Under the pieces are notes generated by a model that worked only from the letters and a program-made list of their open reading frames with translations, did no database searches and was not told the origin of the DNA. Shown here in pieces: positions 5,287-30,041 of a DNA stretch of 32,000 nt. The stretch comes from Psychrobacter cryohalolentis K5 (GTDB taxonomy: Bacteria > Pseudomonadota > Gammaproteobacteria > Pseudomonadales > Moraxellaceae): positions 9,222 to 41,221 of the forward strand of contig NC_007968.1 in NCBI RefSeq assembly GCF_000013905.1, given 5' to 3'. Position 1 is the stretch's first letter. Every line of letters starts with the position of its first letter. The translations under genes and the position numbers were made by a program.

Positions 5287-5364
5287 GTACACTGTGACTA
5301 TTTAAGTGCGCAAAACCATTGATACCATTAGCTTACAGCCGAAGATTCAAGTCCTCACTAGGGA
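5287..5364 (+). repeat. 78-bp element, copy A; inverted partner at 24343-24420
   Basis: The outer 8 bp (GTACACTG) and the inner 41 bp (36/41 identical, the last 19 bp TTCAAGTCCTCACTAGGGA perfect) are shared with the reverse complement of 24343-24420. The 29-bp middle is unrelated but of equal length. Confidence 0.9.
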
Positions 5365-5828
5365 ACCGAACCAGTGAAATTGGTTTGTCATAGGCATACT
5401 TACAATAGATTATAGTGCAATGGGAAGATAGAACTAAGACAATTAAAGAGCTGATTAAAGAACTCCAAAGTTTTGAGGATCAAAACTTGATTGTTATGAT
5501 AACTAATGATGAAGGTGAAACATTTAACTCGGTAAAGTTGGTTAGCAAAGGGTTTGTAGCTAATAAAGATGATCCTGATAAATATAAGAAAATTTATTGT
5601 GCTTTACACTTCTAAGCTTTAAGACCATCTAAGACAGTTAGTTAGTTTTTTAATCCCTAAACCCATGAAAATCGGTTGGGGGGTGATTTTTTTGCCGTGT
5701 GCAGAGAAAAGCAAGTCAAAGATTTTTTTTACTAGCTGCTTTAGCGATAACCATTATTTAAGATAATCTCGTTAAAGCAGCTATGACCTAACCTTTAAAT
5801 GTTAAAAGTTAAGGGTAAATTTGAAAAA

Positions 5829-24342: not shown

Positions 24343-24420
24343 TCCCTAGTGAGGACTTGAACATTAGGCTGTATGCTATTGGTGTTAGTAGCCAAAATTA
24401 TTTATAGCAGCTCAGTGTAC
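24343..24420 (-). repeat. 78-bp element, copy B (inverted partner of 5287-5364)
   Basis: See copy A. The similarity continues (TACACT, 5 nt further out) on the far side of the IS at 25344-25351, so the IS sits inside the extended element. Confidence 0.9.
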
Positions 24421-24423
24421 ATA

Positions 24424-25340
24424 AGACCTCTTGCAAAAGTCATAAGCCAAGCTCGAAATTAACAATACTGGCGAATAGCTTCATTCTAAGATCGTAGCGC
24501 TGACGACGGTTACGATATTTATGAGCCACGATTTTGAACCGTTTGATTAAGCCTATTTTGTGTTCAACCATAATGCGAAACTTAGCGAGATACTGATTGG
24601 CTTGTTTGCAGAGCTCTAACAATTGACCCCCATGTGGCTTTTTAAAGGGGGTGAAGCTCTGTTCATGTAACTTTGCAATGCCCTGATAGCCACTATCTGC
24701 TAGTAATTTAGCATTGTCAGGAAGCCAATAAGGACAAGTGTCTTTATACAGCTTAAAATCGTGAATAGAGCCTTTGGACATTTGAACATCTAATATTAAG
24801 CCTGTTTTCCAGTGGACGATCACTTGCGCTTTTAAGGTGTGTTGTTTCTTCTTGCCGCTATAGTAGTCTCTTTGGTTTTTTTTGGACGCTCAATAGGGGT
24901 TTCGGTTGCATCGACAATGACGACTGACCAATTGATGTCGTCATCGACTCTACTAGGCAGCTTTTTAGGTAATTCAAACTTGCCTGAATTGATAAGAACA
25001 TATTCTACTTTACGAATAATACGGCTAGCAGAAGACTCATGAATACCAAAGTCCATACTGATGTGGTACAGCGTCCGGTATTCACGCCAATAAGTAAGGG
25101 CCAGTAATATTTGCGCCTCAAGACTAAGCACGCTTGGTCTACCTGGTTTGGTCTTTTGGGTTTCATGCTGCTGCTGCATGGCCTCAAGCATTTCATAAAA
25201 AGTCGCTTTATGAATACCTGTATAGCGTTTGAAGCCTGCGTTATTTTGTTCGAGTAGCTTATCTATGTTTGGCATAGTTCTTAGCCAGTTGTGAATGTAT
25301 TAGTTATTGTAAAATCCTCTGCTACTTTTGCAAGAGGTCT
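24424..25340 (-). mobile_element. IS5-family insertion sequence (Harbinger/DDE_Tnp_4-like), 917 bp
   Basis: Perfect 17-bp terminal IRs, AGACCTCTTGCAAAAGT (24424-24440 and 25324-25340). Flanking ATA at 24421-24423 and 25341-25343 is a probable 3-bp TSD. Confidence 0.85.
24440..25275 (-). CDS. IS5-family transposase in two frames joined at an A8 run (programmed -1 frameshift or indel)
   Basis: ORF1 ends ...IVDATETPIERPKKTKE. Shifting -1 at the A8 run (T8 at 24876-24883 on the + strand) gives ERPKKNQRDYYSGKKKQHTLKAQVIVHWKTG..., the continuous motif of this family. Confidence 0.75.
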
Positions 25341-25711
25341 ATAGAAGTGTAATTTTGAACATAAAATGGTGATACCTTCAGTATAAAGACGTTTAGAGTT
25401 ATCTAAGCCCCAAAAGTAGATTTCTCTTGATAAACTAGTGTTCACTAAATTGATTATATGTTTGCGATATTAAATAGTAAGTGCCTTCATCTATTTTTAT
25501 AACTTAATGACAAACGATAAAAAGAAGTAAAGGCTAATAAAAGAAGGATTTTAAGGTTATAGTTATATGAAAGCATGAGGGGTAATCTATGAGAGATAAA
25601 AGACTCATCATACGGGCAGTAGCAGTCTTTATTTTAATTATTGGACTAACAACTATAGTTATAATTCAATTCAAATTAATGTCACTCAGCATGTTTTATA
25701 GTCTTTTTTAA

Positions 25712-26575
25712 TTAGGGACTGTATAGAATTCACTAATTGAAAAAAATAAGCAACGCCTTACCCTCTTGTTTACCACAGCAAAGAAAAAAGGCGTCACTTA
25801 TGGCTCGCCCTACGCTCACTAATGAGTACTGGCACAAGCTGTCTAATATATTGCGACAAATCAACATATATACCAAGCCCAATCTAAGACTCACCGTTGA
25901 AGCGATGTTATATCGCATACGATTGAGCTGTCCATGGCGTGACTTACTGCCCTGTTTTGGCAATTGGTCTAGCGTTTATCACCAATACCGCTATTGACGT
26001 AAAACAGGTAAGTGGCAAAAACTTATGGCAATCGTAACAGTAGACTATGATAGCGAATGGTTATTTATAGGTGGCAGTATGGTCAAAGCCTATCAGCATA
26101 GTACAGGTGCAGCCAGTTGTCGTGATGAAGCTATAGTAGGAGCGTGGCCGATCATAGCAGCAAGCTGCACTTAGTGGTTGATGTTTGCGGTAACCCTATC
26201 TATGTTCAGCTGACAGGCGAACAGGTACATGACTCTAAGGTAGTCAATATATTAATTAAAAGCACGACTAAGAAACAGACTCAGACGGTAGTAGCAGGCA
26301 GAGGCTATGATAGTAGCGACATTAGAGCGTGTGACTTTAAGCAGTGTGCTGAGTCGGTCATACCGGTTAAGTCTAACTTTAAAAGCAATAACGATACCTT
26401 GGATTGATATTTATATCGCTGCCGCTATTTGGTAGAAAATGCTTTTGCTAGGTTGAAGCATTTTAGAGGCATCGCCACTTGTTATGATAAGCTTAAAGAC
26501 AGTTACGGGGCTGCGATCATACTAGCTTGTGTTTTTATTTGGTTGCCTTTGATTTGAATTCTATATTGCCCCCAA
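25712..26575 (+). mobile_element. IS5-family (IS427-group-like) element, degenerate
   Basis: IRL is TTAGGGACTGTATAGAATTC (25712-25731). The right end GAATTCTATATTGCCCCCAA (26556-26575) matches it in only 16/20 positions. Length is about 864 bp. Confidence 0.75.
25800..26557 (+). pseudogene. IS427-like transposase pseudogene
   Basis: MARPTLTNEYWHKL...CPWRDL...VYHQYRY, then TGA (25995-25997) where the family has Trp. Homology continues (RKTGKWQKL...SEWLFIGGSMVKAYQHS). There is a frame change near 26140 and a second in-frame TGA at 26405-26407, followed by YLVENAFARLKHFRGIATCYDKLK. Confidence 0.8.
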
Positions 26576-26758
26576 TCTAAGTTGTAATAAACCCAAGTTA
26601 TTAGTCCATAAAGTAATTGCTCAAGGGGTTGTTCTAAAGTGCTGAATGTCATGAGAGATTCCATGGCATTTTCGACTGCGTTTATTTCAATAAAAACCGC
26701 TAAGAAGTGGTCTGAAATAAGTTGACCATAACAAATAATTGTTTTGTATTCTACTGCT

Positions 26759-27562
26759 ATGAAGAAGAGATATCTTGTATTTACCGATTTAGATGGAACA
26801 CTACTCAATCACCAGGATTATAGTTTCGCTCCTGCAAAAGAGGCCTTAGCACTTTTAAAATATCGCTCAATTCCTCTCATTATTGCTACGAGCAAAACCT
26901 TTAGTGAAGTAGTAGTGCTTCAAAAAGAGTTAGGCATGCGGCAGCCTTTTATTGTTGAGAATGGTGCTGGGATATTTGTGCCCTCAGAGAGTGTACTTGC
27001 AAGAGAGATGGCATTTAAAGAGGAGTGGATAAAATTCTCTAAGGCGCACTCCTACACAGAACTGAGACTTTTTTTCACACACATGAAACGGAGCTACTCT
27101 ATAAAAGGTTTTGGAGATATGAGTGTTGATGAAGTAATACAGCATACAGGTTTGCCAAGAGAAGAGAGCCTAAATGCCATGAAACGTGACTTTAGTGAGC
27201 CTTTTTTGATGCAAGACGAAAGAGAGCTTGAGGCTCTTAAAAAAGAGGCAAATGAAGAGGGCTTTGATATAGTAAAAGGGGGAAGATTTTATCACCTTGT
27301 CTCACTCCTACAAGACAAAGCAAATGCCATGCTGACACTTGCTCACATGTATGAAGAGTATTACAACCAAAAGTGCACCAAGATAGCCCTTGGTGATAGT
27401 GCAAATGACTTTACTATGATAAAAAAAGCAGATATTGGTGTTTTAGTTCCCCTCTATGATGGCTCTTTTAGTGCCATAGGAAACGCAGATATAAAAAGAG
27501 CAGACTACCCAGGACCAAAAGGTTGGAATAGCTCTATACTGGAGATATTTGATGGACTCTAA
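26759..27562 (+). CDS. HAD-IIB phosphatase, mannosyl/glucosyl-3-phosphoglycerate phosphatase family
   Basis: LVFTDLDGTLL (HAD motif I), ATSKT, GDSANDFTM. Overall similarity to YedP/MpgP as I remember it. Confidence 0.75.
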   Translation: MKKRYLVFTDLDGTLLNHQDYSFAPAKEALALLKYRSIPLIIATSKTFSEVVVLQKELGMRQPFIVENGAGIFVPSESVLAREMAFKEEWIKFSKAHSYTELRLFFTHMKRSYSIKGFGDMSVDEVIQHTGLPREESLNAMKRDFSEPFLMQDERELEALKKEANEEGFDIVKGGRFYHLVSLLQDKANAMLTLAHMYEEYYNQKCTKIALGDSANDFTMIKKADIGVLVPLYDGSFSAIGNADIKRADYPGPKGWNSSILEIFDGL

Positions 27563-27860
27563 AGTGCTTGCAAGAGAGATATTTGCCGATGCACTTGAGG
27601 CGTCTTTGCTAAAAAAATTCGTCTCAAAATATGGCTAGCTTAAAGAAAATATTTTAAGTGTAGATAGCAAGAAATATGGTAACCCCTCTAAACATAAGAC
27701 TGTAGTGGCACAAATATGATAGATGTAGCGATAATAATAAAAGGTAACCGTGAAGGTTAGAGTGCCGCGCTTCGCTCGCAATGACACTTGCTGTCACTGC
27801 GAGGTTTTGAAAAATCATGGCAGTCTAGTTATATGAGATAACATCAAAAGGGAGAATAAG

Positions 27861-29072
27861 ATGTCAGATTTTTTTCAAAACGGCGTTATAACAACACTAC
27901 AAAATGTGGGAAATCGCTCCTTAGAAAGCATAGAAGAAGAATTATTGCACTTTTCAAAACGCAGAAATATGGTGCTTTTGCTTCCCGCTCTCTACTCAGA
28001 GTTTGAAACGCCAGCGATGCAGACTATTATTGATGAGCTTAAAAACGTGAAGTATCTCTATAAAATTATACTTGGACTCGACTGTGCAACTGAGGAGCAG
28101 TTTTTAGAAGTAAAGAAGCGTATGAGCATTTTGGAGTGTAGTGTTGAGGTACTTTGGAATGATGCTCCAAACATGAAAAAGATATATAAAGAGCTTATAG
28201 ATGAGGGTTTTCCTGGTTTAGACACTCCAGGAAAAGGTCGTAATGTCTGGACGATGATAGGTTATGGTCTCACAGATCAAGATAACTATGCTTTTGCCTT
28301 GCATGATTGTGACATAGTAAACTACTCACGAGCGCTTGTTGCACGGCTTTTTTACCCCATAGTACACCCAGGACTTGATTTTGAGTTTAATAAAGGCTAT
28401 TACTCTCGCGTTACAAACAAGCTCCACGGTCGTGTGACCCGTCTTTTTTATACACCACTCATAAAAGCACTCAAGATTACTTTTGGCTCAAACCACTACT
28501 TGGAGTATATGCAGAATTTTCGTTATGCCCTCTCTGGAGAGTTCGCATTTATCCGCTCTCTTGGTCGTGGTATTGCGATTTCTCCTACTTGGGGGCTTGA
28601 GGTTTCAACACTCTCAGAAGTTTATAACAACACCTCAAGCCGTCGCATCTGTCAAACAGAAATCATGAAGACTTATGAGCATAAACATCAAGACTTAGGC
28701 TCAAAAAGTGAAGGTGATGGCATTTACAAGATGGCAAACGATATAGCTAAAACTCTTTTTAGAATTTTAGCTCAAGAGGGAGTGGTTTTTTCAGAAGCCT
28801 CTTTTAAAACACTCCTTGCTTCATATTACCAGCAGTCGCGTATTGAGATTTCAAAGTACAGTGCACTCAGTAAGATAAATGCCCTTGAGTATAACCGCCA
28901 AAATGAGATAAGTGTAGTCGAAGCTTTTGAAGAGGCTATCAAAGAAGCTGCAGCTGAATTTTGTGAGGATCCAATGGGTGTTGCATCCCTCTCTCCGTGG
29001 ATTACAGTGCGTTCCGTTTTACCTGGCTTTTCCGATAGATTTAGAGCGATGGTAAAAGAGGAGTCAAAATGA
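27861..29072 (+). CDS. Glycosyltransferase, glucosyl/mannosyl-3-phosphoglycerate synthase-like
   Basis: 403 aa. The N-terminal DFFQNGVITTLQNV and the size resemble GpgS-type enzymes. Pairing with the MpgP-like phosphatase supports a glucosyl/mannosyl-glycerate pathway. Confidence 0.6.
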   Translation: MSDFFQNGVITTLQNVGNRSLESIEEELLHFSKRRNMVLLLPALYSEFETPAMQTIIDELKNVKYLYKIILGLDCATEEQFLEVKKRMSILECSVEVLWNDAPNMKKIYKELIDEGFPGLDTPGKGRNVWTMIGYGLTDQDNYAFALHDCDIVNYSRALVARLFYPIVHPGLDFEFNKGYYSRVTNKLHGRVTRLFYTPLIKALKITFGSNHYLEYMQNFRYALSGEFAFIRSLGRGIAISPTWGLEVSTLSEVYNNTSSRRICQTEIMKTYEHKHQDLGSKSEGDGIYKMANDIAKTLFRILAQEGVVFSEASFKTLLASYYQQSRIEISKYSALSKINALEYNRQNEISVVEAFEEAIKEAAAEFCEDPMGVASLSPWITVRSVLPGFSDRFRAMVKEESK

Positions 29073-29267
29073 TAGTTATAACCCCAGTTCGGAATAAGTG
29101 ATTCATTAAGCTGCTGATAGTATTGATATTTTCTATTACTCTTGAAGACCAGCTAAGTCTTTGAAGACAGGCTTCTATATAAACTACTGTCAAAAGCATA
29201 ACTTTATAAGGTCAGATAATAATTATGCAAATAGTATCAACAACTTAAGCGCTAGTCCCGAATTCAG

Positions 29268-29362
29268 GTTATGATAAGCTTAAAGACAGTTACGGGGCTG
29301 CGATCATACTAGCTTGTGTTTTTATTTAGATGCCGCTGATTTGAATTCTATACAGTCCCTAA
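29268..29362 (+). mobile_element. Solo right-end fragment of an IS427-like element (95 bp)
   Basis: 87/95 identical to 26481-26575. Its terminal 20 bp (29343-29362) are the perfect inverted complement of the IRL at 25712-25731. Confidence 0.85.
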
Positions 29363-29627
29363 AGACTTTTCTTATGATTAACGGTCTAATTCAAATCATA
29401 ACTTATACCGTCGTAACAAATCAGCGGACTTAACAATAGCTCAGCAACACTTTAAACATTCGTTGTACAGACAGCCCAATTGTGTCTCTCTATATTAGAT
29501 ATGTCAGCTTGAAGCTTAATAACTGCTGATAGCCCATTCATCAATAAAAAAAATAAAAGATGAATGAGCTTGGTATTGGTATAGATGCGTTGCCTCAAAA
29601 ACTCATAAATGGAAAAGGAAAGCCATA

Positions 29628-29903
29628 ATGGACAATCAAAATGTGAACGAAAAAAGTATGGATGAACAGTATAAAAACAATCAAAAAATGGATAATGATA
29701 TGAATAACCAAACACTAAAAGGCGAATGGAACCAACTCAAAGGTTCAGTAAAACAAAAGTGGGCAGATTTAACAGATGACGATCTAACCCATATCGAAGG
29801 TGACCGTGACAAATTGGTTGGCCGTATCCAAGAGCGATATGGTCATTCACAAGAAGATGCTGAACGAGATGTAGATGAGTGGCGTAATCAAAATAAATAT
29901 TGA
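29628..29903 (+). CDS. CsbD-family stress-response protein
   Basis: LKGEWNQLKGSVKQKWADLTDDDLTHIEGDRDKLVGRIQERYG is the CsbD signature. Confidence 0.85.
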   Translation: MDNQNVNEKSMDEQYKNNQKMDNDMNNQTLKGEWNQLKGSVKQKWADLTDDDLTHIEGDRDKLVGRIQERYGHSQEDAERDVDEWRNQNKY

Positions 29904-29971: not shown

Positions 29972-30041
29972 AGTCAGTTTAGTTAGGACTTGATCCTTTA
30001 GCTGTTTACTATTGATACTTCGTAGTGGCTTACTGCGATGC

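Follow-up and report, generated by a model that had tools for sequence, protein, structure and literature searches.

The window analysed here is a 32,000-nucleotide stretch of the 41-kb plasmid of Psychrobacter cryohalolentis K5, and its positions 25715–29359 form one compound transposable unit of ~3.6 kb. The unit comprises, in order, a decayed 858-bp IS5-family IS, a 184-bp spacer, gpgP, both ends of an otherwise deleted glycerate-kinase gene, gpgS, a 193-bp MITE and an 88-bp IS stub (Table 1). Taken together, the best explanation of its features, and a very probable one, is a compound unit that acquired its cargo from Campylobacterota, transposed as a whole and later decayed. The host plasmid comes from permafrost, and Psychrobacter serves as a model genus for life in cold, salty permafrost; the K5 plasmid is entered in a plasmid review without any description of the unit.

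Table 1. Features of the compound unit and its flanking target duplication, in window coordinates.
Feature	Position	Strand	Basis
Left TA target-site duplication copy	25713–25714		G110 (L171) empty site, in which a single TA joins 25714 to 29360
Decayed IS5-family IS, 858 bp	25715–26572	+	Fragments of Pfam DUF4096, DDE_Tnp_1 and DDE_Tnp_1_2; IRL 25715–25732; own IRR ~26555–26572, degenerate
Spacer	26575–26758		Found in every copy of the unit; directly adjoins gpgP in each Psychrobacter copy
gpgP, HAD-IIB mannosyl/glucosyl-3-phosphoglycerate phosphatase family	26759–27562	+	TIGR01486
Glycerate 2-kinase 5' remnant, 28 codons	27552–27638	+	15/27 identity to donor N-terminus
3' remnant of glycerate-kinase gene	27690–27744	+	Alignment to the final codons of the donor gene, immediately before gpgS
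107-bp insertion	27745–27851		AAAGG direct repeats at flanks; 12-bp-stem hairpin inside; absent from donor loci
gpgS, glucosyl-3-phosphoglycerate synthase-like GT-A glycosyltransferase	27861–29072	+	NF040724
MITE, 193 bp, ~50-bp terminal inverted repeats	29079–29271		97% identical copies in other Psychrobacter
Second-IS stub, 88 bp, intact IRR 29342–29359	29272–29359	+	Matches 26485–26572; IRR perfectly complementary to IRL
Right TA target-site duplication copy	29360–29361		G110 empty site

The outer boundaries are marked by an inverted repeat in which 25712–25732 and 29342–29362 are complementary at 21/21 positions, encompassing the perfect 20-bp repeat noted in a preliminary description of this DNA. 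A direct repeat, 26481–26575 versus 29268–29362, is identical at 87 of 95 positions (92%), exactly as first counted. The similarity of the right-hand block thus stands and its extent does not, as its first ~4 bases are the end of the MITE and the true IS stub measures 88 bp. MITE and stub are joined at a GTTA microhomology, and the MITE recurs in unrelated contexts, with a match in 18 of 146 Psychrobacter genomes. An Rfam scan of 25300–29700 returned nothing meaningful, including no family for the 107-bp insertion.

Throughout, G-numbers label the Psychrobacter genomes compared, among them G033 (P. maritimus), G034 (P. namhaensis), G062 (Psychrobacter sp. UBA5136) and G145 (P. vallis). The IS is confirmed to family level only, as an IS5-family member, by its transposase sequence: an intact relative in G092 scores 252.5 bits against NF033580 (IS5-family transposase; cut-off 110), and the three transposase ORF fragments in the window score 42–46 bits each. 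Intact 858-bp relatives in other Psychrobacter are 80–82% identical to the window IS, and TA flanks three of the four aligned intact single copies, the fourth having CA/TA. Within the IS5 family, the IS427 group has two ORFs joined by frameshifting in the ISfinder organisation; the intact relatives of the element, initially labelled IS427-like, are organised as a single 252-aa ORF with TA flanks. The closest named transposase family, that of the ISPa67-family IS5-like elements of Acinetobacter and others, shares ~56% identity with the intact Psychrobacter relative and is thus only a distant relative of this IS, for which a search retrieved no existing name.

In the window copy, the transposase is interrupted by two nonsense codons (W66* and W200*) and a 1-bp deletion causing a −1 frameshift near 26136, in agreement with the earlier view that it is dead. 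The right end of the IS itself, previously matched at only 16/20 positions, is degenerate here (TTGCCCCC, compared with CAGCCCCT in other copies) and was ancestrally intact, as judged from those copies. Neither another related transposase nor another copy of the inverted repeat was found in the K5 genome, so that movement of the unit would need a helper from outside, much as had been anticipated.

The same unit, bounded by the same ends, occupies three unrelated sites, bearing out the proposal of a composite-transposon or transporter-IS unit, with the outer IRL and the distal IRR acting as the ends. At the first site, on the K5 plasmid, another Psychrobacter species (G110) has the corresponding empty site, with its flanks joined via a single TA; although no unambiguous target-site duplication had been recognised earlier, this comparison identifies TA at 25713–25714 and 29360–29361. 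Two further sites came from searching for the unit in other contexts, as the preliminary description had suggested. The chromosomal copy of G034 retains IRL and IRR, both flanked by TA, and in G026 the flanks are separated by 15 bp, which is the length that one TA would give. The chromosomal copy of G062 likewise has both ends with TA flanks; in G013, G101 and G137 the sequences bordering it adjoin directly, although a 26-bp indel makes this comparison less sharp. TA also extends the inverted repeats naturally as a palindrome, and the duplication is for that reason read from cross-species, non-isogenic empty sites with flanks 89–90% identical.

These sites bear on whether the unit was ever mobile. 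Two independent IS insertions, one of them later truncated, might have bracketed a resident gene pair, the matching ends being incidental; the IS has its own, ancestrally intact right end, so it could move alone, and a related solo copy free of cargo is found in G003. Such an account is nonetheless highly improbable, given that the boundaries recur at three unrelated sites, empty or contiguous in relatives, and that the interior is identical in all copies, with the kinase deletion, the spacer and the MITE common to every one.

Recombination deserves more weight, in that copies might have spread only when larger modules recombined, by homologous or site-specific exchange between plasmid and chromosome, without transposition. 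Three species (G013, G033 and G135) carry a copy at the insertion site of the plasmid after a 256-bp right-end deletion; in G013, identity steps from 98–99% over the left flank and unit to only 83% over the right flank, and homology begins at an 80-bp repeat (24344–24423), which fits segment replacement. This process accounts for that subgroup only, however, and the copies of G034 and G062 share with the plasmid nothing but the IR-bounded unit, making spread by recombination alone quite unlikely. Occurrence of the gene pair without IS ends in close relatives had been named as an observation that would point to vertical origin; the three copies lacking the right end arose by deletion at the same site and give no evidence of such an origin.

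The remaining copies document decay. The G145 copy starts within the IS, its left end having been truncated; an empty site was sought for this copy, and the adjoining 100–245 bp are not conserved in other species. Transposase lesions differ between lineages. W200* is common to K5, G013, G145 and G097, yet the right flank of G145 differs, implying that one move was mobilised in trans, that the mutation recurred or that the copies recombined.

The cargo points to Campylobacterota. There, the gene order gpgP, glycerate 2-kinase (glyK), gpgS, GH13 phosphorylase (a GH13_18 sucrose-phosphorylase-like gene) and galU was found at ~70 donor loci; families across Campylobacterota have kept this five-gene cluster, with pgm also in synteny. 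The GpgS protein is 83–89% identical to proteins of Campylobacterota (Campylobacterales, Sulfurimonas), which, together with the syntenic cluster, substantiates the distant donor first suspected; gpgP is 69% identical to the Sulfurimonas gpgP of the same gene order. Sequence and gene order thus trace the cargo to the five-gene cluster, closest to Sulfurimonadaceae. The best DNA identity to the donor loci sampled is 78–79%, short of an exact donor, and in the tree the unit copies group as a single clade, separated from Campylobacterota by a long stem.

Traces of the missing kinase gene support the same source. The 5' remnant matches 15/27 residues at the N-terminus of the product of a Sulfurimonas locus (L058:2871-4145; DUF4147+MOFRL; NF041176 glycerate 2-kinase) and overlaps the end of gpgP by 11 nt, as in donors; the identity of this fragment had been recognised correctly, and 27552–27638 replaces the coordinates first given (27548–27637). 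The 107-bp insertion is unique in the K5 genome, and G034 lacks 80 bp of it. For the spacer (26575–26758), no match was found in donor loci (tblastx, blastn) or in the K5 genome.

Codon usage in the cargo is foreign to the host. ATA makes up 52% of its Ile codons; the chromosome has 14% (p=3e-9) and the plasmid backbone 28% (p=0.002). AGA makes up 34% of Arg codons, compared with 8% in the chromosome (p=2e-5) and 26% in the backbone (not significant); CTT+CTC are also enriched. Of the excess over the plasmid backbone originally described for both codons, that of ATA therefore holds and that of AGA does not. GC content was considered as a signal of foreignness and rejected, being the same in the unit as in the backbone.

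Vertical inheritance within Psychrobacter, or transfer in the reverse direction, found no support and was rejected, the chance of either being negligible. The gene is carried by only nine of 146 Psychrobacter species, at different sites, and the Psychrobacter copies form a tight star-like clade (dS 0.04–0.09) against host flanks that are 74–90% identical; the conserved donor cluster and the foreign codon usage argue in the same direction. In the protein cluster at ≥90% identity, all named members are from Psychrobacter.

Both cargo genes are intact, with dN/dS values of 0.13–0.48, indicative of purifying selection at the sequence level; gpgP is intact in 7/7 copies (dN/dS 0.13–0.41). The gpgP product passes the cut-off of the MPGP-family model TIGR01486 (217.4 bits; cut-off 164.75), as expected of the MpgP-type HAD phosphatase originally described, while remaining below the MpgP equivalog models (223 versus 362 bits). 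GpgS, for its part, matches NF040724 (GpgS_Meth, M. burtonii type) over its full length (3–401 of 403; E 7e-94), upholding its description as a GpgS-like glycosyltransferase. Its HDCD (DXD) motif (H148-D149-C150-D151) is invariant in 15 homologues, and the best fold match of its predicted model (pLDDT 69) is the solved mycobacterial GpgS (probability 1.0, E ~1e-5). The score of 314.8 bits lies below the NF040724 equivalog cut-off of 700, so we infer the sugar specificity from synteny. On this basis, GpgS would join NDP-glucose and 3-phosphoglycerate into glucosyl-3-phosphoglycerate, which GpgP would dephosphorylate to glucosylglycerate, a compatible solute; the K5 genome also contains a full-length GalU-like gene.

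A different product, such as mannosylglycerate or a precursor of a larger glycoconjugate, or silence of the pair in K5, is unlikely. Besides the sub-threshold score, MpgS is among the fold matches of GpgS, HAD-type GpgP enzymes are MpgP homologues, and MpgP and GpgP phosphatases are interchangeable (PMC3240985). No paper joining Psychrobacter with glucosylglycerate, or Sulfurimonas with GpgS, was found in the literature. Likewise, no convincing promoter emerged, as promoter and terminator matches were no commoner than in shuffled sequence and the promoter-like site in the spacer (26712–26739) is weak and no better than shuffled sequence. However, donor synteny with galU, pgm and the GH13_18 gene indicates glucose chemistry, GpgS provides the best family and fold matches, and purifying selection acts on both genes. 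Assembled metatranscriptome-library contigs from three studies cover gpgP and gpgS, a weak hint of expression, the dead IS being covered equally evenly.

Glucosylglycerate synthesis is also what comparison with known pathways favours. The GpgS/GpgP pathway of Methanococcoides burtonii and Persephonella marina employs the same two enzyme families (PMC3240985). Genes for GGaP are known to lie in clusters with glyK, gpgS and gpgP, in agreement with the donor gene order, and the glycerate kinase and GH13_18 phosphorylase of GGaP-containing clusters both occur in the donor cluster (PMC7178133). Unlike these clusters, the Psychrobacter copy no longer has the kinase, and neither the phosphorylase nor galU ever reached it; the pair resides on a mobile element with a predicted role in synthesis only.

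In the history proposed here, the cargo would have been cut from a Campylobacterota glucosylglycerate cluster, and an internal deletion would later have removed the glycerate kinase, leaving only the two synthesis genes. A matching transposase, when available, would pair the IRL with the distal IRR, bypassing the IRR of the IS itself, and everything between these ends would move into a TA target, duplicating the TA. The unit was probably assembled once and would then have moved between Psychrobacter species, both by transposing whole into at least three sites and by recombination of larger segments. Decay of the transposase or of an end in every lineage would have fixed the cargo in place, and the K5 unit is not expected to move unless the cell acquires a related IS.

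Among known mobile systems, the unit resembles the composite transposons Tn5, Tn9 and Tn10, with cargo between inverted IS ends, moved whole by the outermost ends and inserted with an IS-typical target duplication, here of TA. It differs from them in having one full IS rather than two, the second being a right-end stub fused to the MITE, in carrying a compatible-solute pathway instead of a resistance gene, and in lacking a functional cognate transposase. In ISEcp1-blaCTX-M units and the 'transposable modules' of ISPme1, one IS mobilises adjacent DNA via a distal right-end sequence in place of its own IRR. Those IS1380-type units use a weak surrogate end, whereas the distal end of the K5 unit, whose IS is of the IS5 family, is a genuine homologous IRR belonging to a second copy. 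Transporter IS (tIS, ISfinder) are IS-sized transposase genes with passenger genes within one terminal IR pair, normally without an internal IRR; the K5 unit, by contrast, keeps the right end of the IS itself and is for this reason structurally a compound element. It is accordingly a well-documented compound-type element, a new member of a kind already known.

Resistance or catabolic genes are the cargo of most documented compound transposons. Here, a stress-protectant biosynthesis pair would have passed by capture from one phylum, Campylobacterota, into Gammaproteobacteria of another, and comparing filled with empty sites allows its movement to be retraced base by base. A broader reading, which we put forward tentatively and at somewhat less than even chance, is that the unit is a cross-phylum 'osmolyte transposon' circulating in environmental Psychrobacter, a synthesis-only cassette repeatedly fixed by decay and supplying a solute new to the genus. 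If so, a balanced synthesis-and-breakdown cluster would have been turned into a cassette for glucosylglycerate synthesis alone, and fixation would have occurred repeatedly, through loss of the transposase or of an end after insertion. The unit may thus offer a clean natural example of cargo immobilised as the transposition machinery decayed independently in each lineage, and it predicts glucosylglycerate, a solute so far unreported in Psychrobacter, which would be relevant to life in saline permafrost brines.

The observation behind the preliminary description is confirmed. A repeat finder recovered the perfect inverted IS ends around a 3.65-kb segment (25712-25732 and 29342-29362, 21/21) as well as the two 95-bp blocks (26481-26575 vs 29268-29362, 87/95 identical). 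The host replicon is a 41,221-bp plasmid of P. cryohalolentis, which derives from Kolyma permafrost; it is 100% identical to NZ_CP022042.2, and in the K5 genome (G000) the window occupies G000:C2:9222-41221. In the Psychrobacter genome G110, at the counterpart of the plasmid's insertion site, the left flank runs as far as 25714 and the right one starts at 29360, the two overlapping by exactly TA; this places the unit proper at 25715-29359 and identifies TA as the target duplication. The earlier statement that no unambiguous duplication could be seen is thereby overturned, TA standing on both sides of the unit and singly in G110.

Features of the unit, with positions in the window where available
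Feature	Position	Size	Remarks
TA target duplication	25713-25714 and 29360-29361		G110 comparison
Spacer		184 bp	between IS and gpgP
gpgP product		267 aa	HAD-IIB; above cut-off of MPGP-family model TIGR01486
Kinase 5' remnant	27552-27638	28 codons	15/27 identical to glycerate 2-kinase start, same position, Sulfurimonas locus
Insertion bounded by AAAGG repeats	27745-27851	107 bp	12-bp-stem hairpin; just upstream of gpgS ribosome-binding site
gpgS product		403 aa	M. burtonii-type GpgS model NF040724, whole length, E 7e-94
MITE	29079-29271	193 bp	~50-bp terminal inverted repeats; starts 3 bases past gpgS stop

The GpgS gene was found in nine of 146 Psychrobacter species genomes. P. namhaensis (G034) and UBA5136 (G062) retain both the IRL and the distal IRR, each adjoined by TA, within outside DNA unrelated to the plasmid. 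In G026 the two flanks of the G034 site are separated by 15 bp, and their combined length is that of the G034 flanks plus one TA. In G013, G101 and G137 the flanks of the G062 site are contiguous, with a 26-bp indel. P. vallis (G145) has the precise right end against yet another flank and a truncated left end. Judged from these junctions, the unit evidently moves as one whole. The filled sites with their matching empty or contiguous flanks, together with the empty site of G110, bear out the proposed transporter-IS or composite-transposon remnant, and the transposable-unit interpretation is supported and now sharpened.

The IS pieces in the window encode IS5-family domains (DUF4096 and DDE). 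Related elements (80-82% identical, 858 bp) are found across many Psychrobacter genomes, frequently as multiple copies; an intact relative has one 252-aa transposase ORF scoring above the IS5-family model cut-off, and three of four aligned intact copies have TA on both sides (G016 has CA on one side). Relative to the intact element, the K5 copy carries W66*, a 1-bp deletion and W200*, so that the transposase is dead, as had been proposed, and no second homologous transposase or extra terminal-repeat copy was found in the K5 genome. The internal IRR was ancestrally intact, its mismatches in K5 being lineage-specific. W200* is common to K5, G013, G145 and G097 and absent from G034, and G145 has a different right flank. 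This distribution suggests a move after inactivation with a helper acting in trans, a mutation that arose more than once, or recombination among the copies.

In G013, P. maritimus (G033) and G135 the unit occupies the plasmid-type site and has lost 256 bp (29123-29378), including the stub and 19 bp outside it (the right-hand TA and 17 bp of flanking DNA); these copies therefore descend from a K5-like arrangement. Across the left flank and unit G013 is 98-99% identical to K5, against only 83% in the right flank, so its copy was probably acquired through recombination involving a larger segment. Plasmid homology to chromosomal contigs of G013 and G033 starts abruptly at an 80-bp segment (24344-24423, 100% identical) with relatives elsewhere in the window at 29980-30014 and 5324-5379; this segment and the drop from 98% to 83% suggest exchange of a module comprising a small ORF, the unit, csbD and PAP2. 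G013 (L014:5991-6131), G033 and G135 also carry a 141-bp palindromic MITE-like insertion at TA between gpgP and gpgS, which K5 lacks. The G013-like form of the IS with both genes is covered by contigs assembled from four metatranscriptome libraries of three studies, which is not proof of transcription. In runs X15-X17 and X19 (compost, tick, sediment) the IS-gpgP-gpgS segment is 95-99% identical with the right end deleted, and from these assemblies the deleted variant seems to be the common environmental form.

A second, unrelated IS (24424-25340; 917 bp, 17-bp perfect inverted repeats, HTH_Tnp_4 and DDE_Tnp_4 ORFs) is missing from the otherwise 98-100% identical G013/G033 segment with a 3-bp junction overlap (ATA), and is therefore a recent insertion into the K5 plasmid that made a 3-bp duplication. 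A hydrophobic 40-codon ORF (25589-25711) stops right at the insertion site of the unit. Its retention beside csbD in empty-site species (G110, G142 and G056, ~82-89% DNA identity; G072, ~74% overall) indicates that it predates the insertion, and it may be a real small gene.

The closest non-Psychrobacter proteins (83-89% identical) belong to Campylobacterales, Sulfurimonas and Arcobacter, where ~70 loci share the order gpgP, glycerate 2-kinase, gpgS, GH13 sucrose-phosphorylase-like gene and galU, often accompanied by a divergent pgm. The same gene association has been published for clusters with glucosylglycerate phosphorylase (PMC7178133). Identity and shared gene order uphold the suggested distant donor; DNA homology with donor loci spans ~26746 to 29063. 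In the tree, the Psychrobacter copies fall into a single star-like clade, separated from the Campylobacterota sequences by a long stem, with G135+G013+G033 as sole internal group. The foreign codon usage claimed for the passengers holds against the chromosome (ATA 52% vs 14%, AGA 34% vs 8%, CTT/CTC enriched); against the plasmid backbone AGA shows no difference, and the GC content of the unit is not foreign. The gpgP-glyK-gpgS-GH13 core also occurs in Flavicella/Bacteroidota (L085, L086, L087) and a Spirochaetota MAG (L115), with GpgS 65-75% identical and no galU detected downstream, indicating that the cluster crossed phyla more than once. A distant GpgS homologue (43% identity; L012/L022, G081:C46) that bears no relation to the unit sits on a 4-kb contig of one Psychrobacter genome.

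The kinase N-terminal fragment was correctly recognized, with coordinates off by four; it shares 11 nt with the end of gpgP, exactly as in donors, ~1.1 kb of the gene is gone and the final codons remain at ~27690-27744. The adjoining 107-bp insertion, of which G034 lacks 80 bp, could affect gpgS expression. MITE copies 97% identical lie in unrelated contexts in the genus (L144:4464-4662, L145:2951-3149, L146:3472-3676); the family (~193-200 bp) has matches in 18 of the 146 genomes, and no candidate partner transposase was found. The MITE meets the 88-bp IS stub at GTTA microhomology. Internal features common to all copies indicate that the unit was put together once.

In the public annotation the passengers are simply 'HAD-IIB family hydrolase' and 'glycosyl transferase', and the IS is missing. 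GpgS scores 315 bits against NF040724, under the 700-bit equivalog cut-off; its DXD-type motif HDCD is invariant in the homologue alignment, and its AlphaFold model (moderate, pLDDT 69) is closest to solved structures of mycobacterial GpgS, followed by MpgS. GpgP enzymes of the HAD type are homologous to MpgP, with which they are often interchangeable (PMC3240985). gpgP is intact in 7/7 copies examined and gpgS in 6/7 (internal stop in G135), with no indels and dN/dS of 0.13-0.48 at dS of only 0.04-0.09, far under host divergence. The literature searched contained nothing linking Psychrobacter with glucosylglycerate. K5 has a full-length GalU-like gene; neither a cluster-type glycerate kinase nor a GH13 phosphorylase was found there, so the cassette's predicted role would be synthesis-only. 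The unit is a compound transposon or IS-mobilised unit of a known kind, whose cargo is unusual and whose history is well resolved.
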